The translations under genes and the position numbers were made by a program. Shown here one piece after another: positions 3,623-52,936 of a stretch of DNA of 64,000 nucleotides; position 1 is the first letter of the stretch; every line of letters starts with the position of its first letter. The stretch spans positions 984,717 through 1,048,716 of the forward strand of contig OZ244829.1 of the NCBI GenBank assembly GCA_965220415.1, given 5' to 3'. Origin of the DNA: Candidatus Poribacteria bacterium. Its GTDB lineage: Bacteria > Poribacteria > WGA-4E > JAJDTR01. The notes beneath the pieces are model-generated. The model made no database searches and was not told the origin of the DNA. It saw only the letters and a program-made list of their open reading frames with translations.

Positions 3623-3661
3623 AAGCTATGCTGCCAATCAAGAATATGAAAAAGACCGTGA

Positions 3662-11903: not shown

Positions 11904-11904
11904 C

Positions 11905-13204: not shown

Positions 13205-13264
13205 CGCTACAACTCAAACAAGTTACAATTTCCCGCGTAAGAGAGATTGAATCTATAAGCAGGT

Positions 13265-14433: not shown

Positions 14434-14591
14434 TGTTTCTTGTTCCTCGCAATATATCTCTTGTTCTAAAAAATAAGCAAAGTTGTTACTCTTTCTGGTG
14501 GGATAAATAACTTAAAGACACAATACGCCATCCGAAAAACACAATTCCCACAATTTCCGACCAGTGATAACCGAGATTAAATAGTCGCAGT

Positions 14592-16067: not shown

Positions 16068-16191
16068 ACTGAATTACTCCTTAAAACCAAAAATAGGTAT
16101 ACAGAAAATAGCGCTTTTTCATTTCTTCGCAGTATCCGCGTCGACAATGACATTCTATCATAGTCAATGGGGATTGCCAATTCAAAATCGC

Positions 16192-17334: not shown

Positions 17335-17379
17335 ATAAAATCCCCGTCATCCGAGACGAATAATTCCCAATCGTTCGAG

Positions 17380-23660: not shown

Positions 23661-24520
23661 CCTTTTGTCCCCCAGTTGAAAAAACTCTCCGAGTAGCTGA
23701 AGTCATTCTTCCGATTATAGCAGCTACCTCTATTCTGCGCAACGCAAAAGGACGGGGCACGCAGGCGCCGTCCATTTCAGTCCGTACCGTGGAGTTACCC
23801 ACGATTGCGAATCTATCAAGTGCGTACGCAGCGCATTCGGCTGAACCTACAGATCGGAATCCCAATCACGGTGCAGTATACGCACTACAACATCGCGGAA
23901 TTTTGACGTGTTTCCCCTCGTATAAAATGTTGGTAACTGTTTAGTTCAGCCAAAAACGAGTGGCAATATTAGTTTGGCAGCGTATCGCGCCCGACTATCG
24001 GCAGCGGGGTATTCTTGGATTATATGTGGGAGGGGCATCTTGCCCCGATATTCCGCGTACACGATAAATCAACTCCCTAAACAACTAAGCAATGAAAATC
24101 CACTTTCGATAGGGAATCGCTCCTGCATCGGGGCAGGGGGGATCTCTATCGCCTTCGTTATTCACTCAGTTGATCCCTCCCACAAGGGATATCGCTCGCA
24201 TGTTGGGTACATGAGAGAAATTGCCATCGGTCGTGGAATAAAGAGTGCGCCTTGTATTCGCCGCAGGGAGTTAACGGACTAAACAATTACCACTGTTGAT
24301 TCTCATTGACCGCCTCCGTGGAAGCATGTAGAATAATTGGAATTATGCTTCAGGGAATACCCCGCAATCTCGGGACGATACCGGAAGTCGGTCGTGTGAC
24401 AAAGTGCGCGCATGGTTGGAAGAGATTCGGGTAGGTGCCGGCATTGAGGCGCCGGAAACGTACGCGTGATAGTTATCGAAACGTGACAGCAATGTTATAC
24501 GGGAAACGAAGGAATTCAAA

Positions 24521-26481: not shown

Positions 26482-26645
26482 CTATACTTTGCGTTGGGTA
26501 TTATTGCGCTTTATTTTCCAGTGATGATTGTTTCTAATAGGACTTACGTAGCACCATTAGGTCGGGAATCGGAGTTCCCTCGTACAGGGGTCGCGACCTG
26601 GAGATCGCTCCTACAGAAGACGCAATTTCTGACAGTGCGGAGTAC
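26482..26645. repeat. ~150-bp intergenic repeat B (copy 1); contains palindrome GGTCGCGACC and short TIR ATTGCGC/GCGCAAT
   Basis: About 90% identical to 37846-37995. Partial third copy at 45640-45690. Confidence 0.55.
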
Positions 26646-30453: not shown

Positions 30454-31440
30454 CTATCGGACGTGCGACGCACTTTTCTTAAGCCTACCCCAAATCTCGA
30501 CTGTTTTGGAAGCGCGGGACACACTTAATCCTACCGGCCTAAAGTCGGGCTCGTCATCGTTCACATCACGAACTTTGCTGAGTTGCTCAAGATATTTTCC
30601 GTCTGCGGTCATCAAGTGAATCTTTCTGCCGAAGGGAATACCTGCCTTAGAGACTACATATGCGATCGTCCCCCCATCGGGAGACCACGTCGGGCGTGAA
30701 TGATCTTCGTTATTGTGTGTAAGCCTCACCGGATTTTTGCCATTCGCTCCCATCACGAAGATGTGCCTGAATCCTTTGTGCGAGGCATCGTATGCAATCC
30801 GCTGTCCGTCGGGAGAAAACGAAGGGTTCGATTTACCCGTTAAATCGTGCGTTAACCTTTCAAGCCCCTGTCCGTCAATGCCCATCACGTAAATTTCGAT
30901 GCCTTCATCATTCCTAGATACGAATGCAATCTTTCCCCCATCCGGAGACCATGATGGCTGCATCGTTCGGTCTTCAAACCTTACACGATTTTGTCCATTA
31001 GCATCCATCACCTCGATATGATCTAACCCATCGTGGACGGTGAATGCAATCTTACCCCCATCGGGAGACCAGTCAGGATCCGCCTTCGTTGCCGGCCCAT
31101 CTGTCAGTTCAATCTGATTCTTACCATCGGCGTCCATGACGCAAATCTGATATCCGCCGGATCGACGGGAAACGAATGCAATCTTCGTCCCGTCAGGCGA
31201 CCAATCCGGTTCCCTGTCGTCCACTGGATGGTTTGACAAGTTTTCCCGGTTTCCTCCATCGGCGTCCATTACATAGATTTCATAGTTGTCAAATACCAGA
31301 TTTGAAAAAACAATCCGGGACCCCTGTGCGGCGAGTCCTCCTATAAACCACCGTTCCCCACTTAACAGCATCATGGTTAACCCGATACACGACACAAGTA
31401 TGCGCCGCAATCGCATTTTTTCCTCCTTGTTTGTGCCCAA
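30454..31440 (-). CDS. Secreted PD40/TolB-like WD40 β-propeller protein with conserved C-terminal tail ...TVEIWGRLKK
   Basis: Repeats of DWSPDGTKIAFVS...YVMDADG type. Signal peptide, probably starting at internal MRLRR. Shared tail. Confidence 0.7.
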   Translation of the reverse strand: MGTNKEEKMRLRRILVSCIGLTMMLLSGERWFIGGLAAQGSRIVFSNLVFDNYEIYVMDADGGNRENLSNHPVDDREPDWSPDGTKIAFVSRRSGGYQICVMDADGKNQIELTDGPATKADPDWSPDGGKIAFTVHDGLDHIEVMDANGQNRVRFEDRTMQPSWSPDGGKIAFVSRNDEGIEIYVMGIDGQGLERLTHDLTGKSNPSFSPDGQRIAYDASHKGFRHIFVMGANGKNPVRLTHNNEDHSRPTWSPDGGTIAYVVSKAGIPFGRKIHLMTADGKYLEQLSKVRDVNDDEPDFRPVGLSVSRASKTVEIWGRLKKSASHVR

Positions 31441-31568
31441 AATGAACAGTAAGGTAACCGGTTTTGAGTGCGTGCTCAGGTACCGTTTGTACGCGCTCCC
31501 AGTCCTTGCGCTATGCTCTCGGCACTGGCGATATTTTCAATCCCTGTTTTCTAGCCCCATTGACATCA

Positions 31569-32579
31569 TCAGGGCTTCCCGGTGCGTTTGAGATCTCCCC
31601 AAGATGTCGGCGACTTTCCGTTTGGGCTGACTGCAAACGCACCAGCAGCAAACAACCAGGAAGGAAGTATGTTATCAACACCGGGAGGAGTTCTCGTGAG
31701 TTTGACCGGGTTGCTCCCGTCTGTGTCCATCACATAAATATTATAATCTCCATCACGGGTTGACGCAAAGGCGATTTTTGTACCATCCGGCGAATAGGCT
31801 GGAAACCTGTTGCTACCCTCCTCCGTAAGCCTTTCTAAGTTTTCCCCTTCAGCGGTAATCGCGTAAATCTGATAATCCAGGCCTGGATTGAAGAGGTGCT
31901 GCGAGTGAAAAGCAATCTTGCTTCCATCTGGCGACCAAATAGGGTGCTGATTTTTCGTTAGGTCGGTATCGCCAGTGAGATTGCGCCTTTCCTTTCCATC
32001 CGCATTCATCACGAAAATATGCTCTGGAGTAAACAAGTCGCCATCACGGGCGGATACAAACGCAATCTTGCTTCCATCTGGCGACCAACTCGGTGAACTA
32101 TCCCTCCACTTGTGTTTTGTCAAATTTATCGGGTTATTTCCATTCTCGTCCATCGCATAGATTTCCAAGTTGCCAACGACCGCACGGAAAGATGAAAAGG
32201 CAATCCTCTTGCCATCCGGCGACCAACTAGGGTGGATTTCAACAAAATTGTCATGGGTAAGTCTTACCACGTTATTGCCATCGCTGTCCATCACATAAAG
32301 GTCATGTGTAACGCCGCGTTCTGATGTGAACACAATCCTTCTCCCATCCGGCGAGCAAGCGGGAGAGTAATCGTATGCCGGGTGGTCGGTGAGTTGGAGG
32401 AGATTGTTTCCGTTTTGGTCCATGGAGTAGATGTCCCAGTTGCCAATCCAGTCGCCGTCGTGGTTTGATTGAAAGACGATTCTCGGTTCGAATGTCTGTG
32501 CTGTGCTGTCCGAAACAACCATTAACGCCAGTAACAATAGAAACATGCGTCTACTCAATAATGGGCTGATTTTATTCAC
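31569..32579 (-). CDS. Secreted PD40/TolB-like β-propeller protein with conserved C-terminal tail ...SPTSWGDLKR
   Basis: PD40 repeats (SWSPDGKRIAFSS, YVMDSDGNN). Signal peptide. Shared tail. Confidence 0.7.
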   Translation of the reverse strand: MNKISPLLSRRMFLLLLALMVVSDSTAQTFEPRIVFQSNHDGDWIGNWDIYSMDQNGNNLLQLTDHPAYDYSPACSPDGRRIVFTSERGVTHDLYVMDSDGNNVVRLTHDNFVEIHPSWSPDGKRIAFSSFRAVVGNLEIYAMDENGNNPINLTKHKWRDSSPSWSPDGSKIAFVSARDGDLFTPEHIFVMNADGKERRNLTGDTDLTKNQHPIWSPDGSKIAFHSQHLFNPGLDYQIYAITAEGENLERLTEEGSNRFPAYSPDGTKIAFASTRDGDYNIYVMDTDGSNPVKLTRTPPGVDNILPSWLFAAGAFAVSPNGKSPTSWGDLKRTGKP

Positions 32580-33407
32580 CGGTCATCTTCTCCTTTTTCG
32601 GGTTCTATAACTTCTAGAGAATTCTCTAACCTAAGTTGCCACGTTTGTAGCACGAGGAATCTCTATCGCGCTGCTTTTTCAGTCGCTTGATCTGTTAGAT
32701 TGTGCTTGTGATGCGCAAACTGACAGATCACCTGGACGGACAGTGGGGGCGATAGAGATCCCTCTCCAGGTCGGAACCTCCTTACTTGCATTAGACACTT
32801 ATGGCGTAAACCTCTCACCGCATATCGTCTCAATTTACCAGAGACGAAACCGAATCAAACGACTTTTCAATGAAACTCTTACGCCTACCCTAGGTGCGGG
32901 TAGTGTTGGCGGCGAAGTCACTGGCCTAGAACGGGTGCACGACTGCGTTTAGACGCCCTCCCAACCATTACGTGACACCCACGGCGCTGCCGAGGGTGTC
33001 AATGACCCGCCCCATAGGGATCAAGTTAAGCGTTTTAGGGTGCAAGTCACGCAGCGTCAATGTCTTGAACTGTTGATCTCCATGTAGACGTGAGCGAGGG
33101 AATACCAGTTCATTCACTGATGGGTGCGCCACAAAAGATGACTCATGGCGCTGGTTTCCGCAGGTGCCGGTGCGGTTGGAAAGGGATCTCTATCGCACTC
33201 ATTATCCATTCGCTTGATCGCACCTACCGTGTGGGGGATGATAGAGATTTCCTCCCCATCCTATGGGACTAAGTTAAGGGTTTTGCGTCGGAGAACACCA
33301 CCGATACTAGACGAAATCCCTTAAGTCGATCCCAATGGGGTGTCAATGACCCGCCCCCGCATTGTCCCCATTATCAGGCTTCGTAGTTCAAAAGGCAATC
33401 GCGCAAA

Positions 33408-34376
33408 CTATGGGCGGTTGAGCTCGACTTTCTTCAGCTTGCCCCAAGTTGTGCTCGTTCTGGAAGCGGCGGAAACGGCTAGTCCTGTGGGGCGAAAGTG
33501 GGGCTCATAATCCCCACCATTGTTGGCATCGCTAAGTTGCTTAATATATTGTCCATCGGCGGTCATCAAGTGAATCGTTCCTATGAGGCGAAAATTACGT
33601 GCCGACACATAGGCGATCGTCCGTCCATCAGGAGACCATGCGGGCAGCCAATTATTCTGTGTACTGTGCGTAAGCCTCTTGCTCTTTTTACCATCCGCCC
33701 TCATCACATAGATTTGAAAATAAAGAGACTCTTCGTCCATGCCCCAGTATACAATCCGTCCCCCGTCGGGAGACCATGATGGCCTGCCTTTAACCCGTAA
33801 ATCATGCGTCAACCTTTTGCGGCCCCGTTTGTTCGCGCCTATCACGTAAACTTCTTCCACCCCATCTGTCAAGGATACATATGCAATCCTTTTCCCATCC
33901 GGAGACCATGACGGCTGATAAGCGTGGTGTTCAAGCTTCACACGATTTTTTCCATCAGCATCCATCACGGCGATATGAACAATCTTTTTCCCATCTGTAC
34001 TAGAGGAGAATGCTATCTTTTTCCCGTCGGGAGACCACGCCGGATAATCGTCCTTTACCGTGTCTGTGAGCCTAATCGGATTCTTTCCATCGGCGTCCAT
34101 TAGGTAGATCTGATTGAACCCGCCATTTCGGTTGGAAACGAACGCAATCTTCGTCCCGTCGGGAGACCACGCTGGACGGTAGTTGCCTGCTTGATTTGCC
34201 GTTAATCTTCTATGGTTTGTCCCGTCTCTGTCCATCAAATAAATCTGCGAATTCCCATCTCTAGTCGAAGTGAATACAATCGTGGCGAGTGCGCTTTTTA
34301 ACCACAGTTCTTCACTCGTCAAACAGACGCACAGTCCTGCAAACAGTAGACATCTAGGTATCAGTTTGAATCGCAT
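33408..34376 (-). CDS. Secreted PD40/TolB-like β-propeller protein with conserved C-terminal tail ...TSTTWGKLKK
   Basis: PD40 repeats (AWSPDGTKIAFVSNRNG, YLMDADGKN). Signal peptide. Shared tail. Confidence 0.7.
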   Translation of the reverse strand: MRFKLIPRCLLFAGLCVCLTSEELWLKSALATIVFTSTRDGNSQIYLMDRDGTNHRRLTANQAGNYRPAWSPDGTKIAFVSNRNGGFNQIYLMDADGKNPIRLTDTVKDDYPAWSPDGKKIAFSSSTDGKKIVHIAVMDADGKNRVKLEHHAYQPSWSPDGKRIAYVSLTDGVEEVYVIGANKRGRKRLTHDLRVKGRPSWSPDGGRIVYWGMDEESLYFQIYVMRADGKKSKRLTHSTQNNWLPAWSPDGRTIAYVSARNFRLIGTIHLMTADGQYIKQLSDANNGGDYEPHFRPTGLAVSAASRTSTTWGKLKKVELNRP

Positions 34377-34738
34377 TTTGCTCCCTCCTAGGTTATAACT
34401 GTTTAGTCCATTGATTTCTAGGGGCGATCGTTATGATTTTAGACAACCTTTTTCGCGAAGTTTTGGCGAACACCGCGCAGATACCCGTTTTTCTGGCTTA
34501 TAGTAGCATCAAGCGACTGGATAAGGAGCGCGATAGCTAATCCCCGGCGATAGTCCATCCCGCTCGCTGTTCACTCCGTTGATCTCTTTTTTCTTAAAGA
34601 CTAGGTTTCTTCCCTTATTCCTAGTGGTTGCAAGATGCGGAATAGTCGCCTCATGACTTGCAACTAATCACGTACAATCAAGGTAATCTCATGAATCACA
34701 GTTCAGAGAAGTTAACTGCCACCGACCAAGCGCACCCC

Positions 34739-35689
34739 TCACCGGAGGCTGAGCGCGGTATTCTTCATCCTGCCCCAAATTGTAATCTGGCGACCTTCCG
34801 GCGAAACCGAGAGTTCTCCCGGATATAGCCAATCCGGCTCGGCATTAGAGAACGCGGGATCACGTGGCAAAGCGTCGACATCGCCGTTAGTTACATCCAC
34901 CGTGTAAATCCCAACAATTCCAGGATCCCTTCCAAAAGAGTGAAACGCGATGGATCCACTGTCCGGTGACCATGTGGGGTGTTCTTCCGTAACATGCTCC
35001 GTGAGTTGCCTCGGATTCTTTCCGTCGCTATCCACCACCCAAATCACGTTATCGCCCACATACGCGATGCGCTTCCCGTCGTGTGACCATGATGGCAAAC
35101 GTTTTCGCACAAAGTCATGCGTTAACTGCATTCGATTTCGTCCGTCGACATCCATTACGTAAAGTTGAGCCCCATTACCATTTCTAAAGGAGATGAATGC
35201 TATTCGTTTTCCATCGGGCGACCACGACGGATGGAAGCCTCTCCTAGAAAATACCCTCTTGTTGTTCCCATCCGCATCCATCACAGTAATCCCACCGTGG
35301 GTGTCGTACACTATTTTTGTGCCGTCTGGCGACCAGTCCGGATAAACGTCATTCAACCCGTCCGTCAGTCTAATCGGGTTCTTCCCGTCGGCGTCGATCA
35401 CCCAGATTTGCTTGCGATCTTTGTTTACATTGTTTCTATTGGAAACAAAGGCAATCTTTTTGCCGTCGGGAGACCATGCCGGATATTCGTCCCTTGCTGA
35501 ATTTACCGTTACTCTTCTATGGTTACTCCCGTCGCCATCCATGACACAAATTTCCAAATTCCCGTCACGCGGAGAGGCGAAGGCTATCTTGGTTCTGCGA
35601 GAGGCGTAACCGATTTCCGCAAGTTGCATCTGGATAAACAGGGAGATGACAAGCACTGTCCCCGCCAGTTGTCTAGCGTTGAATGACAT
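34739..35689 (-). CDS. Secreted PD40/TolB-like β-propeller protein with conserved C-terminal tail ...QITIWGRMKN
   Basis: PD40 repeats (AWSPDGKKIAFVSNR, DWSPDGTKIVY). Signal peptide. Shared tail. Confidence 0.7.
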   Translation of the reverse strand: MSFNARQLAGTVLVISLFIQMQLAEIGYASRRTKIAFASPRDGNLEICVMDGDGSNHRRVTVNSARDEYPAWSPDGKKIAFVSNRNNVNKDRKQIWVIDADGKNPIRLTDGLNDVYPDWSPDGTKIVYDTHGGITVMDADGNNKRVFSRRGFHPSWSPDGKRIAFISFRNGNGAQLYVMDVDGRNRMQLTHDFVRKRLPSWSHDGKRIAYVGDNVIWVVDSDGKNPRQLTEHVTEEHPTWSPDSGSIAFHSFGRDPGIVGIYTVDVTNGDVDALPRDPAFSNAEPDWLYPGELSVSPEGRQITIWGRMKNTALSLR

Positions 35690-35699
35690 TTTTTCCTCC

Positions 35700-36497
35700 T
35701 CTTTTGAATATATACCGTGCGCTGTCAGAAATTGCGCTTTTCAAGATTTTAGGCTTGCTTCACCGATTGTAGAGACAGCACCAAGCGGACGGATTAGAAT
35801 GGGGTAACGTCGGCAGTTTCCACCTGTGGGATCCCTATCGCGCTCATTATCCATTCGCTTGATTCACTCTGGGGCTTTGCTGTAGGTCGAATCAGTTTCT
35901 ATACACCTTCCGCCCCTCTGGGGCTCTCAAGTAACACTCCACATTGCACTCCTCTGGAGTGCGGAAATTTGGACATATCGTATTCTATTGACATTTCGAT
36001 CCTCTGGATCGAGGAAAGGGACTCCGACCAGAAAGTGTTACTTGCTGAATGAATTATTCCGACAGGGATAATGGAGCGCTACCAAGATTTAATTAGGTCG
36101 CGATTCGGAGATTGCGGGATTTCTATCGCAGTCACTATTCGTTCCTTTGATCCTACAAAATAAGCAATTCTCAGCCGCCTGGAGTATAAGCTGATGTTTC
36201 AAGGGAGATTAAGCGAGCGATTAGCGATCAAGTGACTGGAAAGGGGCGCGATAGTGAATCCCGTGCTATAGGGGTCCCACCTAAAGTCCGTAGGCAGGAA
36301 CTAAGGGAGTGAATTATGACCGATCAACCGAGTGGATAGCGAGGGATCAAAGGAGCGAATAGCGATCAACCGACTGATTAGGGAGGGCGATAGAAAATCC
36401 CCTGTGATAGCCAATCCTGATACTAAATCCCGCGCGATAGTGAATCCCGATAGAATCCCAGTATGATAGAGATTCGCTGCTCACCATCCATTCGGTA
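35700..36497. repeat. Intergenic repeat cluster: multiple direct and inverted copies/fragments of the GGGATCTCTATCGC...CATTCGCTTGATCGCACC unit (repeat A)
   Basis: At least 8 GATAG(N)AATCCC fragments in both orientations between 36110 and 36480. Full unit at 35828-35870. Irregular spacing. Confidence 0.6.
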
Positions 36498-37301
36498 CTA
36501 TCGACCCTTCAATCTACCCCAGGTTGTCGCCAGCTTGCCTATTTCCGACACTGCTGAGAGCGGCGACAGTCCATTGTCCATGATTCCTGAGATGTCGTCC
36601 TCTGTAAGCGCAACACTAAACAGCGCTACTTCGTCAATAAGTCCCTTCCAGAACTCTCTGCCGAAGCCGTCGGATCCGATAGCGACATGTTCGGGAGTAG
36701 AGCCGCCGGTGACCTTTCCGACATTATGCTCGGCTTCTTCGACTCCATCAACATACACCCTGAGGCTGTTGCCGTCGAAAGTGCCCGCGACATGGTGCCA
36801 CTCGCCATCATCAATGTGTGTTGCGCTGTGAACACCTGCCCAATTACCGAAATGAATCCATAATGTCAGCTTATGGGCATTCCATCCCGATCCAAGTGAA
36901 AATGGCCCCTTGTCCCCCTTGTTCGGGTCCTGTTTGCTAACCACCCGTGCAGGCGCCGTAAGCCCTCCGTCGCCTCCGTCCCATCTACACCAAGCCAGTG
37001 CGGTAAGGCTCGTGAATCCATCAACGGCGTCAATATCGCCGCAATCTACGCGGTCATCCCCGTCGAATTCCAGGGCGCCGCCGAACTTCCCAGCTACCCA
37101 TTGCGGGTTCCCCACGAGTTGCCCGACATGATCGTTGCCGGATGTGTCACTTGCAACTTCGCCGTTCCCATCGTCCAAAAGCCACATCCCGATAACGTCT
37201 TCCGGGCTAAATTCGGCAATGCTTGCGCCTGCTAGAATCATTATTACGAACATGGTACTCACGCAGGTTCCGGTTGTTCCGTTCATCATTATCGCCTTCA
37301 T
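36498..37301 (-). CDS. Secreted LamG/concanavalin-A-like lectin-fold protein with conserved C-terminal tail ...KLATTWGRLKGR
   Basis: Signal peptide. LamG-like pattern (ALEFDGDDRVDCGD...EWHHVAGTFDGNSLRVYVDG...LIDEVALF). AGGAGG RBS. Shared tail. Confidence 0.65.
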   Translation of the reverse strand: MKAIMMNGTTGTCVSTMFVIMILAGASIAEFSPEDVIGMWLLDDGNGEVASDTSGNDHVGQLVGNPQWVAGKFGGALEFDGDDRVDCGDIDAVDGFTSLTALAWCRWDGGDGGLTAPARVVSKQDPNKGDKGPFSLGSGWNAHKLTLWIHFGNWAGVHSATHIDDGEWHHVAGTFDGNSLRVYVDGVEEAEHNVGKVTGGSTPEHVAIGSDGFGREFWKGLIDEVALFSVALTEDDISGIMDNGLSPLSAVSEIGKLATTWGRLKGR

Positions 37302-37336
37302 TGTTTCCTCCTTCTCGTATGTTAGTGAATTGGTAA

Positions 37337-37505
37337 TTGTTTAGTCCATCGGTCTGGATTTACCAATCCAGACCGAGCGGGGCAGGGAACACGCCGAGTA
37401 GCGCAGTACAATGCTAATTCCGGCTAACCGGGGGCTTACATGCCCAGACCGGACGTGCGACGAACTGCAATACTACGAACCAAACGATGCACTAAACGGT
37501 TACGT
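37337..37505 (-). promoter_or_regulatory. Repeat C (copy 1): conserved ~170-nt 5'-UTR element with a perfect hairpin, immediately upstream of the LamG-tail gene
   Basis: About 88% identical to 42522-42690, which sits in the same position upstream of PhyH gene 41538-42485. Hairpin CGGTCTGGATT-ggtaa-ATCCAGACCG lies about 45 nt 5' of the RBS. Confidence 0.5.
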
Positions 37506-37845
37506 GAATTGAAATTAACCGCCAAACGCCTGCTTCCACTCTATCATCACTGTCGGAGCGATCAAATGAGCGAATATATCAAACGAGTGAATAACGAGTG
37601 ATCAAGGGAACGGTTAGTGACCGCGATAGAGATTCCATAGTAAATCCTCATACGATAGAGATCGCCCTCCTGTTCCCAACTTCCTGTCGTGGATTGGAGG
37701 AATCTCTACGGGATTTCTATCAGGATCCACTATCGCACTCATTATCCATTCGCTTGATCGTTCCAACAGAAAACGTGCAATGGATAGTGCTACCACAAAC
37801 GGAGTAGCACACGTCCTTACGTAACGCAAGTGGCTATACTCTGCG

Positions 37846-37995
37846 TTGGGCATTATTGCGCTTTTTTCCCAGTGATAATTGTTTCTAATAGGACTTACGT
37901 AGCACCAGAAGGTCGGGAATCGGAGTTCCTTCGTACAAGGGTCGCGACCTGGAGATCGCTCCTACAGAAGGCGCAATTTCTGACGGCGCGGAGTA
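37846..37995. repeat. Repeat B copy 2
   Basis: See 26482-26645. Confidence 0.55.
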
Positions 37996-38191
37996 TACTT
38001 ACAAGATTATGGACATGTACCATCGTTTTTTATTGAAATTGACCCATTAATCGCGGAGACTTCGTAGCGCAAACTGTCAGTTTGCGCGCGAGTTAAGCAC
38101 CGGAAGCACAATCTAACAGATCGTGCTACAAAGGTGGCAACTTGGGTTACGTACGGTTCGGAATTGTAACGATTCCAGTCATCGTATAAGC

Positions 38192-40402
38192 CTACCCAAC
38201 CTTGGCATAGGTAACAAGCAACGATCCCGGCTGAGAGTCTGTTGAAACATCAATGCCCTCTGCCATTTCCCTCCCATTCATTACAACCTTGAGATTCTGA
38301 TCTTCAAAGTTCACATTATAGCTTGCCTCCAACTCAAGTCCCCACAATTTCAGTGTTGCGGATTGCTGCGAACATTCGGGGCGGCGAAACGCAAATACCA
38401 TCCCTTGACCCGAGTCCTCCTTGTGGAACTGGTACGCCAACCACGTGTCGTGGGATATGGTATACGGCGTGAGAGGATAAAAATCCCCGTAGAACAGATG
38501 GCGGATGCGTTTGTATTCCTCAATTAACTTGCGGGCAGTATCCCACGGAAACGGCTCGGTGACCATGTAACCTACGTTGTCTTCATCGTCGACAGTTTTG
38601 CGCGGCACTGTTTTTAGTTCGTAGGGTTCCTCCTGATTGACGGGAAACGCCAGGGGCCAGCGCTGCTCTAGCTCCGGTTGAAACGGATTCCACGCGGCTG
38701 CGATACCGGCGTTCATTGAGCTGCGAAATGAATAGGTGTCGGGGTAGCCGCTGGCGGTTGCGGTTGATGGTACCCATTGACTGAGACCATAGGTTTGCGA
38801 TTGATAGTCGTTCGGTTCAAAGCCGGGATGGTTGTGGTCCGAGCGCCACAGATAAAAACAGCGAGACATAGCCTCCAGGTCTATGCGCGTAGCGCCGCCG
38901 CCGCACATATCGATAATCAGTCCCGGATTTCGCCTGCGAAGTTCGTCCCAAAACCAATACATGCCCTCAATATAGCGAATTTCGGCAATTCCTTGTCTAT
39001 CCGGTGCGTCCGCATCTCTCCACCACTGGAGCGGTTGCCCGTGCGGATATGGTCGTCCATCGGGGTATGTCAAGTTCGCGCCGATTGGCCCGTCCTGCCG
39101 GTAAATGCCAATCCCTTCTTCCGCAATCAGATTCGAAATGTAATCGGTTATCATCGTAAGCGCCTCGGGATTCCCGTAGTCCAGCATTCTGAATGGCGGA
39201 AGCCCCGTGACCTCTTTATCTTTGACGGTAAGAAACAGTTCAAGGTGTTCACGCTCCATCCACGTGCTTCCACCCTGATATTCGGGAGCAAACCAGACAA
39301 GTAGACCCATATTCATTTTCCTCAGCGCGTCGGATATCGCTCGGAGTCCGTTGGGAAAACGCTCAGGGTCGGCAGGTCCGATGTGGGAAACCCCCGGGCT
39401 TTTGATTTGCCAGCCCACGTCCATCCAGATATATTCAAATCCAAGCGGCGAAAATGCAGACGCATATTCGATTTGGTTTTGTTCGGTCGCACCAAATGCT
39501 TCTTGGTACATCCCCATCGAACTTGCCAACAACGGCACCGGCATCGGCTTGCAATCCCTTTGTGGATAGTAATGGGCTAGTAGTATTCGACGAAGCAGGT
39601 TCTGTCCGTAGATTCGATGACCTTGCCAGAAGAGAAGTAACATCCGTGGAGAGCGAATCTCTTCTCCGGGCAGAAGCTTGAGGTGCGTTCGCTCCATTCC
39701 GGCGCATACACGCACCGATTGTGAGTCTCGCGAAAAACTTGCCAGCCATTGCCCCGTCCAACCGATGGCAATCATGACACCGTGGTTTGACATTTCAAGA
39801 TTGAAGAAAGGTAGACTGTCACCCCACGAGGATCTTCCGTGCATTGAAGACATTTCCAGAGTAGAGTCAGTTGCCAACTCTCTGACGTTCGGACCAAAAT
39901 CCGCTGTACCGGCGGCGACTCCCTCCTTCGCACCCGACGTATAATGCAGCTTAAAGTCATCTGCATCGTCACGTAGCACGGTGTCCAGTGCCTGGATATT
40001 GGCGATAATCGGCGTGTCACATTCTCCGGTATTTCTGAATTTTACTACCCATTCGGCCGCGGGATGGTCCACGAAAAGCGTTACTTCACACCGAACTTCA
40101 AGACCCGTTTGTTTTTCGGTGTACGTTACCGTTTGTAGAGTTCGCTTCTCATCCAGCGAAGTTTCGTTTATTGAAAAGTCCCAAGTAGTTAGAATCTCTC
40201 CTGAACTCACGCCATCGTATTCAAATGAAAAGGGAGGCAGTCCGGAATCAGAAAACTTCCCTTCCATCCACTCTCTCAAGCCATCCCACCACGCGGATTG
40301 AGACATCTCAATGCCTGTGGCTTCCAACACCGGTAGAGGATTATCTACGTAATTCTCAAGATTGCCGCCTTCGTGTGATTGCAAAGGATTTCCTTCCTCC
40401 AT
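38192..40402 (-). CDS. Putative glycoside hydrolase, GH36-like (α-galactosidase-like TIM barrel)
   Basis: N-terminal PFSFEYDGVSS segment, central YIWMDVGWQ and DMCGGGATRID segments reminiscent of GH-D clan α-galactosidases. Start at MEEGNP is supported by GGGAGG RBS; the ORF track's longer start at 40441 lacks an RBS. Confidence 0.45.
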   Translation of the reverse strand: MEEGNPLQSHEGGNLENYVDNPLPVLEATGIEMSQSAWWDGLREWMEGKFSDSGLPPFSFEYDGVSSGEILTTWDFSINETSLDEKRTLQTVTYTEKQTGLEVRCEVTLFVDHPAAEWVVKFRNTGECDTPIIANIQALDTVLRDDADDFKLHYTSGAKEGVAAGTADFGPNVRELATDSTLEMSSMHGRSSWGDSLPFFNLEMSNHGVMIAIGWTGQWLASFSRDSQSVRVCAGMERTHLKLLPGEEIRSPRMLLLFWQGHRIYGQNLLRRILLAHYYPQRDCKPMPVPLLASSMGMYQEAFGATEQNQIEYASAFSPLGFEYIWMDVGWQIKSPGVSHIGPADPERFPNGLRAISDALRKMNMGLLVWFAPEYQGGSTWMEREHLELFLTVKDKEVTGLPPFRMLDYGNPEALTMITDYISNLIAEEGIGIYRQDGPIGANLTYPDGRPYPHGQPLQWWRDADAPDRQGIAEIRYIEGMYWFWDELRRRNPGLIIDMCGGGATRIDLEAMSRCFYLWRSDHNHPGFEPNDYQSQTYGLSQWVPSTATASGYPDTYSFRSSMNAGIAAAWNPFQPELEQRWPLAFPVNQEEPYELKTVPRKTVDDEDNVGYMVTEPFPWDTARKLIEEYKRIRHLFYGDFYPLTPYTISHDTWLAYQFHKEDSGQGMVFAFRRPECSQQSATLKLWGLELEASYNVNFEDQNLKVVMNGREMAEGIDVSTDSQPGSLLVTYAKVG

Positions 40403-41537: not shown

Positions 41538-42485
41538 CTACGTCTGGTACGGCGTCAAGTCCATATTTGGAAACCGCACCGCGATTCCCTTCAAAGTTGT
41601 CTCCGAATAATACGGGTGCCCGGGTGGGGGCCAACCGAATAGCGTACGGACACGTGCTGTTGTCTTCTCCCAAAACGGCTGAAAGAACTGTTGCTCCGGT
41701 CCGCTCCAAGGATTCGCTAACTTGGTCCAGCGACTCGTGTCTCCGCGCGCCATGGATAGCGTCCAAAATGCGCGTTGTTTCCGCTTGTTTTCAAAGGGTA
41801 TGGCAGCATGTATGAGATAGGACGAATAGAATAGAGCGCTGCCTGCCTTAGCGGTGGTGGGTACCGGTTTGGCGAATTCCGGAACTTTCCGAATGTCTTC
41901 TAGCCCACCCCCTAAACGCAGGTATACATCCGCCGCCTGTCGATGTGATTCGGGAATCACGTGCATGGGAGCGCCATCGTCATCGACATCGTGAAGATAA
42001 ACTCCGCTGTTGACGTAATCAAATGAACCGATTGCTTTACTTAACGGCAGGAATGTATTGGTGCCGTGATCGGCGTGATAGCCTTGCCACGGGTGTTCCG
42101 GGTAGCGCTCGTCCGTCGGCCCCGATCGCATGAATAGGTGGGCATTGCAGTAACTCGCGTCATCCGTACCAAGACACTGGGCGAATACGTCAAGATAATC
42201 TTCGTTCTCAATCAGCCGATCCAGCGCGTCAAATCCTGTTGGAAACTGCGCGCGGCCATGCTCCGTGTCGCCGTAATGCGCAACAACATTGGTGACTGTC
42301 GGTTCCACGGAATCTGCTTTTCCGGTTTTATCCAAATCCGCGAGGTATTCAGCGAAGGATTTGCCGTAAAAGATGTGCTCCATATCACGCAATGCGGCTG
42401 CCATCGCATCCGGGTCGAAGAGATCCTCAACCATGATATAACCGTCATGATAAAAAGCGTCAAGTTGATCTTGAGTTAACTTCAT
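41538..42485 (-). CDS. PhyH-family Fe(II)/2OG dioxygenase (convergent with preceding paralog)
   Basis: MKLTQDQLDAFYHDGYIMVEDLF; YHADHG H-x-D motif. AAGGAG RBS. Preceded by the repeat C 5'-UTR element. Confidence 0.65.
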   Translation of the reverse strand: MKLTQDQLDAFYHDGYIMVEDLFDPDAMAAALRDMEHIFYGKSFAEYLADLDKTGKADSVEPTVTNVVAHYGDTEHGRAQFPTGFDALDRLIENEDYLDVFAQCLGTDDASYCNAHLFMRSGPTDERYPEHPWQGYHADHGTNTFLPLSKAIGSFDYVNSGVYLHDVDDDGAPMHVIPESHRQAADVYLRLGGGLEDIRKVPEFAKPVPTTAKAGSALFYSSYLIHAAIPFENKRKQRAFWTLSMARGDTSRWTKLANPWSGPEQQFFQPFWEKTTARVRTLFGWPPPGHPYYSETTLKGIAVRFPNMDLTPYQT

Positions 42486-42521
42486 AAGCTACTCCTTAAC
42501 TTTTAGAAGGTTTTCTGTAAA

Positions 42522-42690
42522 TGTTTAGTCCATCGGTCTGGATTTGCCAATTCAGACCGAGCGGGGGCAGGGAACGCGCCGAGTAGGGAAGTACAATGCC
42601 AATTCCAGCTAATCGGGGGCATACATGCCCAGACCGGTCGTGCGACGAACTGTAATACTGCGAACCAAACGATGCACTAAACAGTTACGG
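42522..42690 (-). promoter_or_regulatory. Repeat C (copy 2) 5'-UTR element upstream of PhyH gene
   Basis: See 37337-37505. Confidence 0.5.
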
Positions 42691-42835
42691 TTTTCTGGCA
42701 GAATGGGGATAGATGCGAGAATATTCAATGCATATATCGCTCTAAATCCTATTCTATCTTACTCCACACCAGTCTTAATGTCTAGAGAAAAGGTGGTATT
42801 AACCTCAAAACTGCACGTTTGAAGAAACAATCGAA

Positions 42836-44830
42836 ATGGACACGATAATACCAACGTTAGGCAGATATTTCAGTGATAAACTGCGGCTCGTGTTTGCCGT
42901 AATGTTAATCATTATGATCGGGATGTGGTGCACCAATGTAAAAGACACCCGGCCCGTGATTCATACTGAAACCGAAACCTTCATGACGTTCTACGGCAAC
43001 CCAACGGGCGGTTTCTGGAGCGAGGTCGCGAAATTTTTTGAACCTACCCCTACCGACTGGGATAACTATCAGGCGCGAGAACTGAGTTATGTCTTTGAGT
43101 ATGTTGACGCTCACATGGTGATACTGCTCAACAAAATCCCTTTCTTTTCGTACGGCTTTCGCAGCATTTCGCAAATCGCCTTCGTTATTCTTACCACAAT
43201 TGTACTGTATTTCATTATTCGAGAGTTGCTGCCGACGTTTCGACGAACATCGTGCGCGGCGCTGGCGATGCTGTTTCCACTTTCACCCCAGCTTCTTGTG
43301 ATGCACCGCGTGTATTTCCGATGCGGTAAGATTATGGCGGCGTTCTGGGCAGCGCTCTGGATATTCTATCTGATTCGCTGGCTAAAACCGACCCACAAGC
43401 CACGAGGTTTAGTCCCCTACATTCTACTGAGTTTGGGCGCCTTTATGTCATTTATCACGGACAAGCAGAACGTAATGATTGGTTTGTGGCTGATTGGATT
43501 GAGCCTTTTGATAACAGTCATTCGTCGCCGCCATGGAGGTGCATTCCGCCACCTAATACATTTTGCAGTTGCGTTCTGCGTAGCTTTCGGCTTCTATCTC
43601 TGCTGGGACTATCTGTTGTGTCCATACATCATTAATGCCGTCCGGGGGCATCCTCCTTTTCGAGGTTGGTCGTCATTGAGCTTCTTCCTGCTGCACGACC
43701 AAGCCTCATACATGCGAGGTATTTGGAACGGCTTTAAGTTGACCGTACTTCAGCTTCAGTTAGCGTTTGGCAATATCTGGGATGGCTCTTTCCTGTCTCG
43801 GGGGTTTGCGCTGGCTTCATACATCCTTATTACAATCTCGGCAATAAAGAAAACTCCGGGCACCTCCGCCAATGCCAATGAAAATTCACGGCAAGGCTTA
43901 GCGGATCGTGTCGCGCTCGTATTAATGCTAATAACTGCCTTCGTTTTCTGTGTCTTTATGATAATGCTTCTTTATATGCGTCACACCCCGCTTGCCTGGG
44001 CAGACATTTGGAGAGGTGGGTACTATTACCAAAGCGCCACTCTTATTCTCATCATTGGACTTCTGATTGTCTTCTCGCTACTCAGTCGTCGAAACAGGTC
44101 TAAGGCATTTGAGACGGTTATGGTATGTGCTGTTTTTCTGATGTGCATGGCGAACTACTTCAGTCTTCGCACGACTAGGGACCACGGCGATCACGGTCAC
44201 ATGAAGGATCAAGTCAAACTGAATCAAAAATTCGACCAAGAGATTCGATCAAAACAGGTGACCGAGGATTCGCGGTTTCTAATGAAATACATTTTCGCAC
44301 CGGCTAGTGAGCGTCACGCGCTATATGTCGCGAGACCAAGACGTGGAGACGGCGTCAATCTAAAGATATTGAAGAACGATGAACAGATTTGGCCAGAAGA
44401 CGGCTGGACATATTGTAAAGACAGTGCAGACAGACAACATCACGATTTCGAGGTGGAGGTCAGTTCGGGCGATAAGATATTTTTCCACGTGAACATGGTC
44501 AATGGCACGCCGCATGATAGTACCTATTGGGATCCGACGATAAGGTATGAAGATGGAACCGTCTACCAAGCTTCAAAAGGATTTAGCGGCACCCAAGGGA
44601 AAAACGGGTGGCATTACCAATACGAGGAGGGCGGAAATTACGCGAATCTGATTTACGCAAAACCCTATAAGACTTGGAAACATGAAGACCCTGAGCGGAG
44701 GGAGCCTTCGCTGAACTCTACCAAGCAACACCCGGGACACGGAATTGACTGTGTCCGTGTGTTTGTCGTACCGAAAGCCGGGACCGTACGCATAACCGGT
44801 GCGCCGGTATGCGTTGGCACCCCTTACTAA
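42836..44830 (+). CDS. Hypothetical polytopic membrane protein with about 220-aa C-terminal soluble domain (possible GT-C-like fold; family not recognised)
   Basis: 664 aa, about 11 TM helices. Conserved N-terminal module shared with the paralog at 63561+. Confidence 0.45.
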   Translation: MDTIIPTLGRYFSDKLRLVFAVMLIIMIGMWCTNVKDTRPVIHTETETFMTFYGNPTGGFWSEVAKFFEPTPTDWDNYQARELSYVFEYVDAHMVILLNKIPFFSYGFRSISQIAFVILTTIVLYFIIRELLPTFRRTSCAALAMLFPLSPQLLVMHRVYFRCGKIMAAFWAALWIFYLIRWLKPTHKPRGLVPYILLSLGAFMSFITDKQNVMIGLWLIGLSLLITVIRRRHGGAFRHLIHFAVAFCVAFGFYLCWDYLLCPYIINAVRGHPPFRGWSSLSFFLLHDQASYMRGIWNGFKLTVLQLQLAFGNIWDGSFLSRGFALASYILITISAIKKTPGTSANANENSRQGLADRVALVLMLITAFVFCVFMIMLLYMRHTPLAWADIWRGGYYYQSATLILIIGLLIVFSLLSRRNRSKAFETVMVCAVFLMCMANYFSLRTTRDHGDHGHMKDQVKLNQKFDQEIRSKQVTEDSRFLMKYIFAPASERHALYVARPRRGDGVNLKILKNDEQIWPEDGWTYCKDSADRQHHDFEVEVSSGDKIFFHVNMVNGTPHDSTYWDPTIRYEDGTVYQASKGFSGTQGKNGWHYQYEEGGNYANLIYAKPYKTWKHEDPERREPSLNSTKQHPGHGIDCVRVFVVPKAGTVRITGAPVCVGTPY

Positions 44831-44917: not shown

Positions 44918-45039
44918 GTAGGATTGGAAGGATGGAAGAGCGGAAGGTTGGAAGATTTCTTTTCACGCCATTCTCAATCCTCGGATACGAAAGTCTCGGA
45001 ACTTAATGGATGCATAAGAACCTGCTGGATTTGCCAATA
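44918..45039. repeat. Repeat E copy 1 (~125 bp)
   Basis: About 95% identical to 47028-47157. Copy 2 ends in the hairpin CTGCTGGATTtgccaATCCAGCAG; copy 1 is truncated. Confidence 0.55.
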
Positions 45040-45806
45040 TGGGTTTAACGGAACGCGCGATGGCAAGCGGGCCCCGGGTCTCGTTTACAGTGACGCCGTC
45101 GAAATTAGAGCGGATTTTTTCAACAAGCTCTGAAATTGCGCTTGAAGCCTTGCCGGGCGTGGCTCGAAGCCGTGTGCGGCACACTTCGCTAAAGTTCGCT
45201 AAAGTCCGCGCACATATTTCACCCCACTTTTTTGAGGAACACCTGGATAGCCGGTTAGAAAGTAATGATGCGTCTACAAATTTGCTGTGCTCAATATGTT
45301 TCCACATACGGTCATCTCTTGTCACAATGAACGCTTAGATCCTCGTTTTTCGGAGCGTCGATTTAAGCGGCGTGTTAGCATTTTCTGAAATGGAGAATTC
45401 CTTTGCCGGAGCGGGTTCTCAGGAATCGTAATACTAACAAAATGCTAACAGAAAAATAAAGTTCCGCCGCCATGACGACTGGTCTGTTACAATATACCAT
45501 ATACGTGTTAAGTTGTCAATCTATACTTGACGCTGATGAAAATTGCGTGTTTTCAAGCGTCTGGCGGTAGGTGCGGTTGGAAAGGGATCTCTATCGCGTT
45601 CACTATTCGTTCACTTGATCGCACCTACAGGGAACGCATGTCGCGACCTGGAGATCGCTCCTACAAAAGACGCAACTTCTGACAGCTTGGAAAGATGTCT
45701 ACTCATATTCAAATCCTCTTTGATTATCAAGATTGACCGGGGGAGCGTTTGAACACGCTTAATAACGACAATTACCTCCATCGAACGATGGTCAATAATG
45801 AGGTTG

Positions 45807-46703: not shown

Positions 46704-47027
46704 TGTATGTTTCCTTTCTCGGTTATATTCATGCCATTTCTCGATTCGATATCACACTAACATCCACCCGAAGGTTTTGTCAAATGCTTGAGTTCGGGGG
46801 AGATGTCTCCGATCGAATCCGGAATTAAGACGAAATTGACATTGAGGTGGGCGAGGTCGGTGGAAATTTAATAGGTCTCGGCAGGCGAGTTGTGTTTATA
46901 GTGTCTAGCGAGAGCAATCAGAAGTCGTGATATTTCGCCATGAATTTGGGACAGTGAAGCATTGCTTGTGTTACCGATCCAAGCTCATTTTAACGTAAAA
47001 GTTTATCTTCCGCATTGACTGGGAAGA

Positions 47028-47157
47028 GTAGGATTGGAAGGATGGAAGTGGGGAAGGTTGGAAGATTTCTTTTCACACCATTCTCAATCCTCCGATACGA
47101 AAGACTCGGAACTTAATGGATGCATAAGAACCTGCTGGATTTGCCAATCCAGCAGGA
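47028..47157. repeat. Repeat E copy 2
   Basis: See 44918-45039. Confidence 0.55.
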
Positions 47158-47201
47158 GCGGTTGGGCCTAGATTGACATGTAAGTTTTTCTTGGAAGTTG
47201 C

Positions 47202-48179
47202 TCAAATAAAACTCTTGTAGTCGAAATCTTCCAAGTATTGCCACGCGCGGCTTCGGATTTCGTTACGCTCTGCCTCCGAAAGTTCCGCTGCGGTAGCGCG
47301 ATTCGCGGCAGTGGTCGCTTGACGAATCGTGCCCCACGGATAAACCTCTCCGAGTTCAATACCATTGAAGGTAGCAGTTTTCAGTGATTCGGAAGAATAA
47401 CAACCGAGTTTTTCGCACACCGTTCCCAGAGCTTCCGACGGGTTATCCATCACATCCTCCGCACGAACGATATGCACGCGCTCAGGGTATTTCTCACGGA
47501 AGAACAGTGCGTGATATTGATTCACCGTCCAGCCAAGCATGTAGTTCGCAAGAGACAACGGCACGGGACGCTTCTTGGTGTCGGCATAAGCTGACCACGG
47601 GTTTCGCACAATGTGCAACAAGTGTGCGTCAGGGAAATCTTGAAGAATCTTCTCGGTATCAATCACAATGATTGGACTGTAACCGACGTAAAAGATTTCC
47701 TTCCCGGTGCGCCGGTAATCTTTCCAAGCGTCAAAGGTGGCTCGAAAAAAGTTGGCGACATTGTATGCGCGTGAGCGCCCGGTTTCTTTGGCGTGGGTGC
47801 AATAGCGGTCACATCGCTCGTCATCCGAGAAATCAAAGGAGACATGTCGGAATTTGCTCACATGAGGCGTCCGCGCTCGAACTTTGCACTCCTCGTCAAT
47901 AATTGATTTGTAGTCTTGGAAAGGGGTGGCATCCAAGGCAAAGAGGGGCCAACGGTATTTTACGGGGAACATTGAGGTGAGATGGTCAACTACCAACTTC
48001 GTCCCCAACTGCGACTCGAAGGGATAAACGAACATCTGGGGATGACCGTCAAGCAGCCTATGGGTTACGTTCCCTCCATTTTCGTACATTGCGCTGAGCA
48101 TCAATAAACGGAAAGACTGTGGCGAGTGGCTAGCGGAGAGTGGGGAGTTGGAATCAACAATCTTTTGCGATTCTTGCAT
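47202..48179 (-). CDS. Putative sulfotransferase-family protein
   Basis: 325 aa. Pattern consistent with a PAPS-binding 5'-PSB-like region near the N-terminus and 3'-PB-like HIVRNPWSAYAD. Confidence 0.45.
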   Translation of the reverse strand: MQESQKIVDSNSPLSASHSPQSFRLLMLSAMYENGGNVTHRLLDGHPQMFVYPFESQLGTKLVVDHLTSMFPVKYRWPLFALDATPFQDYKSIIDEECKVRARTPHVSKFRHVSFDFSDDERCDRYCTHAKETGRSRAYNVANFFRATFDAWKDYRRTGKEIFYVGYSPIIVIDTEKILQDFPDAHLLHIVRNPWSAYADTKKRPVPLSLANYMLGWTVNQYHALFFREKYPERVHIVRAEDVMDNPSEALGTVCEKLGCYSSESLKTATFNGIELGEVYPWGTIRQATTAANRATAAELSEAERNEIRSRAWQYLEDFDYKSFI

Positions 48180-49142: not shown

Positions 49143-49450
49143 AGAAACAGTGAAAAGCAGTGGCCAGTGGTTAGTGGTCAGTGGTCAGTGTCCAGTAAAG
49201 ACTTTTGGAAAGTGTTTAGTGGCTAGTGATTAGTGACTAGCAAAAATCTTAAAGCCACAAGACGTGCAATGAATTGCACTACTACGAACCTTCAAGCAGT
49301 AGTTAATGGCTGACAAGGGGCGCCTGCAAGGCGTAACCCTTCAGACACATCCCGAAAGATCGCCTAAACTCGTAAGCGGTTTTCTACGCCGGTGCAATAA
49401 ATCAGTAGACTAAACAGTTACGACTGTTGTTTACTTGGACTATTGGTCGC

Positions 49451-52891: not shown

Positions 52892-52936
52892 GTGGAGAGT
52901 GATGAGTTAAACGCTCCCGTTTCTTCTCTCCACTCG

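Follow-up and report, generated by a model that had tools for sequence, protein, structure and literature searches.

In the window analyzed here (the whole stretch of 64,000 nucleotides of Candidatus Poribacteria DNA), two similar segments of about 170 nt lie just upstream of two minus-strand genes that are unrelated to each other. The question raised by this locus is whether the segments are a conserved regulatory RNA in the leaders of these genes or copies of a mobile sequence. The initial annotation, which had placed the copies at 37337-37505 and 42522-42690, preferred a conserved 5′-UTR cis-regulatory RNA belonging to a family of leader elements, and named a promoter-carrying MITE as the last of its alternatives. 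The two copies are essentially there, and their boundaries were refined as follows.

37333..37503, minus strand: MITE copy A, of the "171-nt subfamily", 171 nt; full-length alignment with 44 other non-redundant copies
42517..42688, minus strand: MITE copy B, 172 nt
36498..37301, minus strand: Laminin_G_3 domain protein (LamG) gene, downstream neighbour of copy A, outside the element
41538..42485, minus strand: PhyH dioxygenase gene, downstream neighbour of copy B, outside the element

Copies A and B are 91% identical (157/172; blastn E = 9e-66), slightly more than the figure of about 88% given before. When aligned in the mRNA sense (minus strand), the block that they share starts and stops abruptly. 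The longest ATG open reading frame within the element is 31-35 amino acids, and the element is thus without coding capacity. Both copies are in the sense orientation 5′ of their genes, as the initial annotation had seen, and in both the distance from the element end to the ATG is exactly 31 nt. Among 46 non-redundant copies (described below), however, the element-to-start distances range from 10 to more than 1,000 nt in both orientations. Because the distances vary so broadly, the equal spacing of A and B is best read as a coincidence.

Copies A and B carry 19-bp imperfect terminal inverted repeats (TIRs), GTAACYGTTTAGTGCATCG / CGATGGACTAAACAWTTAC, in which 16-17 of the 19 positions match, and each copy is flanked by its own 8-bp target-site duplication (TSD).

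37485..37503, minus strand: left TIR of copy A (GTAACCGTTTAGTGCATCG), 16/19 match to the reverse complement of the right end
37333..37351, minus strand: right TIR of copy A (CGATGGACTAAACAATTAC)
37504..37511, minus strand: upstream TSD of copy A (CAATTCAC), 8/8 with 37325-37332
37325..37332, minus strand: downstream TSD of copy A (CAATTCAC), 8/8 with 37504-37511
42689..42696, minus strand: upstream TSD of copy B (AGAAAACC), 8/8 with 42509-42516
42509..42516, minus strand: downstream TSD of copy B (AGAAAACC); MITE-free orthologues have a single related 8-mer here

The combination of TIRs with a site-specific duplication of fixed length is a signature of transposition and not of a regulatory RNA. 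The element is very likely a MITE, about 171 nt long and non-autonomous, which in Candidatus Poribacteria is mobilised by an IS66-family transposase of the ISBst12 type; A and B would be independent insertions of it. Thus, it was the last-listed alternative of the initial annotation that the data bore out: TIRs, 8-bp TSDs, an empty site and an IS66-family partner were all found. The same boundaries bear on the idea that a local segmental duplication or gene conversion copied the upstream region of one gene to the other. Two copies in the same orientation, 5.2 kb apart and at equal distances from a start codon, would be consistent with such an event. However, the similarity ends exactly at the TIRs and the flanks are unrelated, each copy has a different 8-bp duplication, and dozens more copies are scattered over other genomes and over loci with no relation to these two. 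The abrupt ends at the TIRs, and duplications that are particular to each copy, rule out this origin for A and B, and we assign it a practically negligible probability.

The window contains more of these ends than the two copies account for. The TIR motif has six matches (0.02 expected) and the 13-nt TIR core occurs 10 times (0.63 expected). The additional sites led to further elements with the same ends and other interiors.

23933..24290, plus strand: 358-nt sibling MITE with GTAAC...TTAC ends; flanking 8-mers AAATGTTG and CACTGTTG, 6/8
49208..49421, minus strand: 214-nt sibling MITE, related to the ~183-nt subfamily; flanking 8-mers CAACAGTC and CAAAAGTC, 7/8
34396..34506, plus strand: truncated remnant of a ~183-nt-subfamily MITE with a solo end (ATAACTGTTTAGTCCATTG), 18 nt upstream of the start of gene 33408-34376

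The 358-nt sibling contains a nested 37-nt repeat at 24139-24175, and homologues of this sibling with perfect duplications are present in two collected loci (L093, 1657-2013, and L002, 15811-16181). The related segment that had been noted at 49255-49430, upstream of the epimerase gene, was confirmed and is part of the 214-nt sibling. In total, at least four MITE subfamilies have GTAACNGTTTAGT ends and 8-bp duplications in common. It should be mentioned that the window also carries repeats of about 37 nt (GGGATCTCTATCGC...TTGATC). They were considered as REP-like hairpins, and this was ruled out as a structural element because their MFE z-score is about 0 on both strands.

We then searched genomes, one for each species, for two TIR cores that lie 140-170 nt apart. 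At least 94 loci have a TIR-core pair, and 83 among the matches listed are in eight Candidatus Poribacteria MAGs, one of which holds at least 37 such loci. Other phyla contributed few TIR-compatible elements among the matches listed. The flanking 8-mers were identical (8/8) in 60 of the 98 testable copies and matched at 7/8 in 10 more. In the controls, for which the flanks were shifted outward, none of 196 reached 7/8 or better. The TSD sequences vary from site to site. The duplicated 8-mers are 65% A+T against a background of 50%, and G/C is enriched at positions 1 and 8. This preference for A/T-rich targets bounded by G/C is consistent with the intergenic bias of the copies: of the 46 non-redundant copies taken from the 171-nt subfamily, 44 are intergenic. 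The 13-nt cores are invariant in these 46 copies, although the cores formed part of the search pattern.

The rival reading, a conserved cis-regulatory RNA (riboswitch-like, or a 5′ leader bound by a protein or an sRNA) controlling the genes that follow it, predicts that the copies face genes in one direction. In its favor, A and B are both in the mRNA sense and end at the same 31 nt from the start codons, and they resemble riboswitches and other leader RNAs in lying between a presumed promoter and the RBS and in having a stable stem-loop. This stem-loop is a subterminal hairpin, which is strongly conserved.

37350..37375, minus strand: subterminal hairpin of copy A, CGGTCTGGATT-GGTA-AATCCAGACCG; perfect 11-bp stem, 4-nt loop
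42534..42559, minus strand: subterminal hairpin of copy B; one A.C mismatch in the stem

The perfect 11-bp stem reported for the element therefore holds for copy A and not for copy B, and the hairpin lies 37 nt before the AGGAGG sequence rather than about 45 nt. We determined the orientation of the 46 non-redundant copies relative to genes, which were defined by a longest-ORF heuristic and not by a trained gene finder. In 22 cases the hairpin end points to a gene start, as it does in A and B (sense), and in 23 cases the other end does so (antisense). Between co-directional genes, 16 copies are sense and 16 are antisense. Within 100 nt of a gene start, there are 8 sense and 11 antisense insertions. 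Thus, the orientation is random, which contradicts the cis-regulatory claim. The unrelated functions of the flanking genes, and the PhyH orthologues without the element (see below), also argue against a link with gene function.

The folding properties of the element were analyzed as well. The sense strand folds somewhat better than shuffled sequences (z = -2.8), in line with a structured RNA. In contrast, the antisense strand folds better still (z = -5.4), as expected for DNA palindromes. In the MFE fold, most of the predicted structure is pairing between the TIRs, and the RBS is unpaired, so that an expression platform is lacking. In the RNAalifold consensus of the 46-sequence alignment, the covariation term is only -0.62 kcal/mol, and 0 of the 12 pairs of the hairpin helix are changed on both sides. 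The terminal helix corresponds to the TIRs and never varies. Ten cells of the alignment have double changes, and all of them come from one divergent three-sequence subfamily. The count of covarying pairs was reached in 45 of 500 shuffles, and is thus not above that of shuffled alignments. A search of Rfam gave no match over the window at the gathering score, and none in the region 35700-38300, which covers copy A, with the limit relaxed to E ≤ 1. Unlike riboswitches and leader RNAs, the element has TIRs and target-site duplications, and it is without a consistent sense orientation, a link to gene function, covariation, an Rfam match or an expression platform. A conserved cis-regulatory RNA is therefore extremely unlikely. 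The initial annotation had itself stated that copies in random orientation and without covariation would be a plain dispersed repeat; by that measure, the element is one.

The qualifier "promoter-carrying" concerns a further possibility, that the MITE has an outward-facing promoter that drives the downstream genes. Because the element ends 31 nt from the ATG, the native promoter would have been displaced by at least 180 nt, and direct reading of the right end gives TTGGCA-17 nt-TAAACA, a weak pair resembling -35 and -10 hexamers. However, the -10-like hexamer is without the invariant final T, and a scan of A and B for promoters and terminators found nothing inside the element; for the sigma-70 consensus, which may not be that of Poribacteria, both strands were empty in both copies. 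Random orientation, moreover, gives no sign of selection for outward transcription. We consider a promoter in the element very unlikely, and the qualifier is not supported. Promoter-like sites resembling the sigma-70 consensus are found 60-100 nt upstream of copy B. Because the scan found no promoter within the element and these sites lie upstream of it, the element is probably transcribed as part of the leader.

If A and B are insertions of a MITE, sites without the element should be found in related genomes. We joined the flanks of each copy and matched them against the collected loci. This search gave a filled site (L074), TAAAATAG|MITE|TAAAATAG-ACCTTCCATCTG with the flank ACCTTCCATCTGTTCGTGCG, and its orthologous empty site in another Poribacteria genome (L055), CTAAATAG-ACCTTTCATCTG with the flank ACCTTTCATCTGTTCGTGCG, where the element is absent. 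For copy B, a scan of metagenomes with the PhyH protein yielded 45 loci. In the PhyH orthologues with 81-88% amino acid identity (L097-L102, L111 and L123), the region upstream of the gene is without a TIR core. If the MITE and a single copy of the TSD are taken out of the window sequence upstream of PhyH, the remainder aligns with the orthologues across the insertion point; for example, cAGAAAACCttctaaaagttaaggag aligns with cAATTAA-CCtcttaatgttgaggag. Synteny with the divergent 664-aa neighbour gene is preserved in two of these loci (L100 and L101). Because the orthologues are without the element and their upstream regions align across the insertion point, copy B is, by sequence comparison, not an ancestral leader but an insertion specific to this lineage, which lies about 15 nt before the RBS. 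It should be mentioned that another locus was considered for the same purpose. In L088, whose sequence is orthologous to window 9361-17441, a MITE is present in the spacer that matches window 10343-10912. This spacer is wholly diverged from that of the window and was ruled out as an empty-site comparison.

Close relatives were also compared. An exact-protein match of the PhyH product gave two metagenome contigs (L001 and L002) that are about 97% identical to the window, and in both of them A and B occupy the same positions as in the window. For the LamG product, the exact-protein lookup returned no record, and tblastn against the collected loci gave only L001 and L002 together with distant paralogues; both orthologues carry copy A, and these searches yielded no empty site for it. 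From strain to strain, A and B are 96.5-99.4% identical and the flanking DNA about 97-98% identical. Because these values are close to each other, there is no sign of special constraint on the element. The L002 contig contains a 371-nt sibling element with the perfect duplication GGATTTCT directly downstream of the LamG gene. This element is absent from the corresponding position in the window and in L001, although the nearby repeats are rearranged and the comparison is not base-exact. The strain-specific insertion may be regarded as a sign of recent mobility.

A non-autonomous element needs a transposase that acts on its ends. We screened the collected loci for any TIR-core pair with matching 8-mers, irrespective of spacing. 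In a Poribacteria MAG (OZ240209; L090, 5641-7201), this screen found a 1,561-bp insertion sequence (IS) with the perfect 8-bp duplication GCAATACA and the ends GTAACTGTTTAGTTC / GTAACTGTTTAGTCC. The IS is filled by a single 468-aa ORF, without TnpA or TnpB. This ORF matches Pfam DDE_Tnp_IS66 (PF03050) with E = 3e-46 and NCBIfam transpos_IS66 (NF033517) with E = 2e-81 and 274 bits (cut-off 180). The inverted repeats of IS66 elements begin with GTAA(GCG) and give characteristic 8-bp direct repeats (PMC11946415). ISDge4, of the ISBst12 group, has one 449-aa transposase ORF, the TIR GTAACTGCTCAGCA and an 8-bp direct repeat (PMC12898284). Other IS66 ends are GTAACCGTCCGGGCA, with inverted repeats that start with GTAA (PMC12888890). 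Judged from its ends, duplication and predicted protein, the L090 IS has the published architecture of the ISBst12 group of the IS66 family.

The link between this IS and the MITE lies in their termini. All copies, and the L090 IS as well, have GTAAC at either end. The 358/371-nt subfamily has up to 36 terminal nt in common with the IS, and the 171-nt subfamily shares only the terminal 13-16 nt, GTAACTGTTTAGT(C/T)C. Sharing of terminal nucleotides alone is typical of MITEs mobilised in trans. Among the collected loci, no IS with ends matching GTAACTGTTTAGTGCATCG over the full 19 nt was found, and there were no further transposase copies beyond L090. We infer that the L090 transposase, or a close relative, may mobilise the 171-nt subfamily.

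The proposed mechanism is as follows. A single-ORF, ISBst12-like DDE transposase of the IS66 family would mobilise the MITE in trans. It would recognise the common TIRs (GTAACTGTTTAGT...) and cut the target with an 8-bp stagger, preferentially at A/T-rich 8-mers bounded by G/C, a type of site that is enriched between genes. The 8-bp direct duplication would arise when the cut is repaired. On this view, A and B would be two independent insertions that came to lie, by chance and in the same orientation, 31 nt upstream of unrelated starts, and they would probably be co-transcribed in the LamG and PhyH leaders. The leader position of A and B is thus probably a consequence of insertion and not a conserved design.

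Bacterial MITEs such as Correia (Neisseria), RUP (Streptococcus pneumoniae), ERIC/IRU and Nezha (cyanobacteria) are non-coding elements of 100-400 nt with TIRs and a TSD, present in tens to hundreds of intergenic copies. When transcribed, they can fold into a long hairpin, and some are located in 5′ leaders. The Poribacteria element resembles Correia, RUP, ERIC and Nezha in being short and non-coding and in having TIRs, a TSD and many intergenic copies. Correia elements have a TA duplication and RUP is related to IS630-Spn1; the Poribacteria element differs from these two in its parent IS family, IS66, and in its host phylum, Candidatus Poribacteria. The comparison with the IS66/ISBst12 group (ISBst12 and ISDge4) is of another kind. 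The L090 IS has the GTAA ends and the 8-bp TSD of this group; it is also similar in size (about 1.5 kb) and in coding for one DDE transposase of about 450-470 aa. The MITE has the terminal GTAACTGTTTAGT and an 8-bp duplication in common with them. However, the MITE codes for nothing and has only 13-16 terminal nt in common with the IS; it is a non-autonomous passenger and not a member of the group. REP/BIME sequences, which are mobilised by RAYT proteins, are likewise short, abundant and intergenic. In contrast to the element, REPs are palindromes of 20-40 nt without TSDs or 19-bp TIRs, whereas the element has TIRs, an 8-bp TSD and a DDE IS66 partner.

The main value of these results is a correction: in Poribacteria genomes, these sequences should be treated as mobile repeats and masked, rather than listed as riboswitch or sRNA candidates. 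Poribacteria are an uncultivated phylum, known chiefly from marine sponges. In the literature searched, no paper links Poribacteria with miniature inverted-repeat elements. Therefore, the element is a new member of a well-known kind, and the set of IS66/ISBst12-derived MITEs with several subfamilies and signs of recent activity is apparently undescribed. Together with other dense repeats, these MITEs fill intergenic regions and turn them over fast. This turnover is relevant to the assembly and binning of MAGs, to strain typing by insertion polymorphism and to the genome plasticity of Poribacteria.

Within the MITE, the hairpin calls for separate consideration. The 32 columns around it are the best-conserved part of the family, with a mean column identity of 0.975 against about 0.91 in the interior, and the hairpin is almost unchanged in a subfamily that is otherwise only about 76% identical. 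It is present neither in the L090 IS nor in the other subfamilies. Because these are without it, a common transposase-binding site does not explain its near-invariance. The hairpin also recurs outside the family. The window contains two copies of a sequence, repeat E, at 44918-45038 (truncated) and at about 46988-47205. Repeat E belongs to another MITE-like family, which is about 245 nt long and has the ends TAAGCAAGTT.../...AACTTGCTTA. The hairpin core TGGATTnnnnAATCCA, in a CCGCTC context, is found within repeat E as well, and an 18-nt core is shared at 47133-47157. The outer stem is CTGC/GCAG in repeat E and GGTC/GACC in the 171-nt family, a difference of three compensatory pairs. The initial annotation had described a related hairpin at 47133-47157 upstream of the sulfotransferase gene. 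The hairpin is related through the shared 18-nt core, although it belongs to a different family. Its placement was incorrect: it lies 45 nt 3′ of the stop codon of the minus-strand sulfotransferase gene (stop at 47202).

These features bear on whether copies A and B, as MITE insertions, have been exapted, so that the stable hairpin in the leader alters mRNA stability or processing, or transcription read-through, for the LamG and PhyH genes in the manner of Correia elements. This reading is compatible with the MITE explanation. The position of A and B between the likely promoter region and the RBS, with the sigma-70-like sites upstream of copy B, would suit such a role, as would the retention of both copies at the same sites in the two relatives, the near-invariance of the hairpin in the divergent subfamily and the second MITE family with the same core and three compensatory outer-stem pairs. 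However, retention in strains that are 97% identical is expected under neutrality, the element and its flanks have diverged to a similar extent, and antisense insertions equally near to starts (10-47 nt) are equally common. Symmetric changes in a palindrome are also expected from a DNA site bound by a dimer or from recombination between MITE families. We regard exaptation of A and B as unlikely, with a small but appreciable chance of being correct.

A broader version of this idea is that the 26-nt hairpin (CGGTCTGGATTGGCAAATCCAGACCG, preceded by CCGCTC) would be a functional module that was acquired and kept by each of two unrelated MITE families of Poribacteria, the GTAAC-type 171-nt family and the TAAGCAAGTT-type repeat E, and that the sense copies in leaders (A and B) would modulate the downstream genes in a Correia-like manner. 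Such a module may be a site at which a host factor binds or processing takes place, or it may act in RNA stability or termination. We consider this doubtful and its chance slim. The outer-stem difference of repeat E is a single event, which a palindromic DNA site or modular exchange between MITEs would explain equally well. No other observation allows for a functional module.

The window contains a second repeat family, which is very dense. Its members are about 37 nt long and have the consensus sequence GGGATCTCTATCGCnnTCnnTATyCnnTCnnTTGATC. We found 20 copies in the 64 kb of the window: they occur in both orientations and all 20 are intergenic.

Positions of the 37-nt repeat in the window (about 37 nt each)
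Copies 1-10: 1867, 10720, 13737, 20388, 22486, 22554, 24139, 30141, 32655, 32726
Copies 11-20: 33183, 34508, 35828, 36116, 36226, 36322, 36364, 37600, 37723, 45584

In 662 kb of loci from Poribacteria MAGs, 115 matches were obtained, from which the abundance is estimated to be on the order of 1,000 copies per Poribacteria genome. Neither the 11 loci from outside Poribacteria nor the loci of the PhyH orthologues gave a match. Complementary arms of variable sequence (for example, GGTGCG..CGCACC and GGTGGG..CCCACC), followed by CCTAC, flank many copies. A stable fold of the 37-nt repeat was sought and none was found (z ~0), and comparison with Rfam gave no match to the repeat. The 358-nt MITE of the window carries one nested copy, and its homologue in L002, one of two metagenome contigs (L001 and L002) that are about 97% identical to the window, contains a nested copy elsewhere in its sequence and in the reverse orientation. 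Because the nesting differs in this way, the 37-nt repeat may be mobile in its own right.

A copy of the 37-nt repeat has also been the target of an insertion. We compared L002 15811-16181 with the window (around 36285-36510) and with L001 15740-16000. As a result, a 371-nt MITE, flanked by a perfect GGATTTCT duplication, was identified as a strain-specific insertion in L002, and its target was the interior of a 37-nt repeat copy. Between these strains, which are about 97% identical, the spacer around this MITE is rearranged. The intergenic repeat content therefore turns over rapidly.

Repeat E, the name given in the initial annotation to the repeat near the sulfotransferase gene, belongs to a different MITE-like family, about 245 nt in length, whose inverted ends are distinct: TAAGCAAGTT... 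and ...AACTTGCTTA. The hairpin core is common to repeat E and the 171-nt MITE, and the outer stem differs by three compensatory changes. Copies were found at the following positions.

44918-45038, window: truncated as compared with the L002 orthologue
about 46988-47205, window
7390-7640, L002
1399-1580, L032
4531-4766, L039
2799-2976, L018

Further repeats are present in the window. Several intergenic spacers contain heptanucleotide tandem repeats of the form ((C/T)AGTGNN)n, and the 183-nt and 214-nt MITE subfamilies have this heptamer tract at one end (for example, GTAAGTGTTTAGTGGCTAGTGATTAGTG). A dispersed repeat of about 134 nt contains GTCGCGACCTGGAGATCGCTCCTACAG; its copies at 26511-26644 and 37862-37995 are 93% identical, one copy is located some 360 nt upstream of the 171-nt MITE that precedes the LamG gene (copy A), and a 25-nt piece of it is found within a 188-nt MITE in locus L008. 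At 13357-13461, where no ORF reaches 150 aa, there is a 21-nt tandem repeat of about five TGAAATGAAAGACCTTCGCGC-like units.

48117-48152, 49165-49245, 52876-52911 and 53463-53498: heptanucleotide tandem repeats
26511-26644, 37862-37995 and 45640-45691: dispersed repeat of about 134 nt

MAGs from phyla outside Poribacteria also contain elements that have the same ends (GTAANNGTTTAGT...ACTAAACNNTTAC) and 8-bp duplications that are perfect or match at 7/8 positions.

L019 3837-4018: Anaerolineales
L086 2783-2961: Saprospiraceae
L051 1289-1516: Omnitrophica
L050 693-881: Planctomycetota

Because both the ends and the duplications recur in these phyla, the range of this IS66 subgroup and its MITEs extends beyond Poribacteria.

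Two gene families were also noted. Four paralogous genes, each encoding about 320 aa, form a tandem array at 30454-35689, and the gene number and spacing of this array vary among the window, L001 and L002.

33408-34376 and 34739-35689: PD40 (WD40-like beta-propeller) genes, confirmed by Pfam
30454-31440 and 31569-32579: grouped with the array only by shared internal repeat families

The second is a paralogous family of proteins of about 660 aa, which gave no match in Pfam.

42836-44830 (+) and 63594-63893: window
3114-5099 and 7656-9671: L001
262-2232, 2592-4577 and 7656-9650: L002

The window copy at 42836-44830 is divergently oriented, upstream of the MITE that precedes the PhyH gene (copy B). 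Over the first 300 nt, nucleotide identity among the paralogues is about 76%, and the orthologue in the PhyH-orthologue loci L100 and L101 shows 56-57% protein identity.
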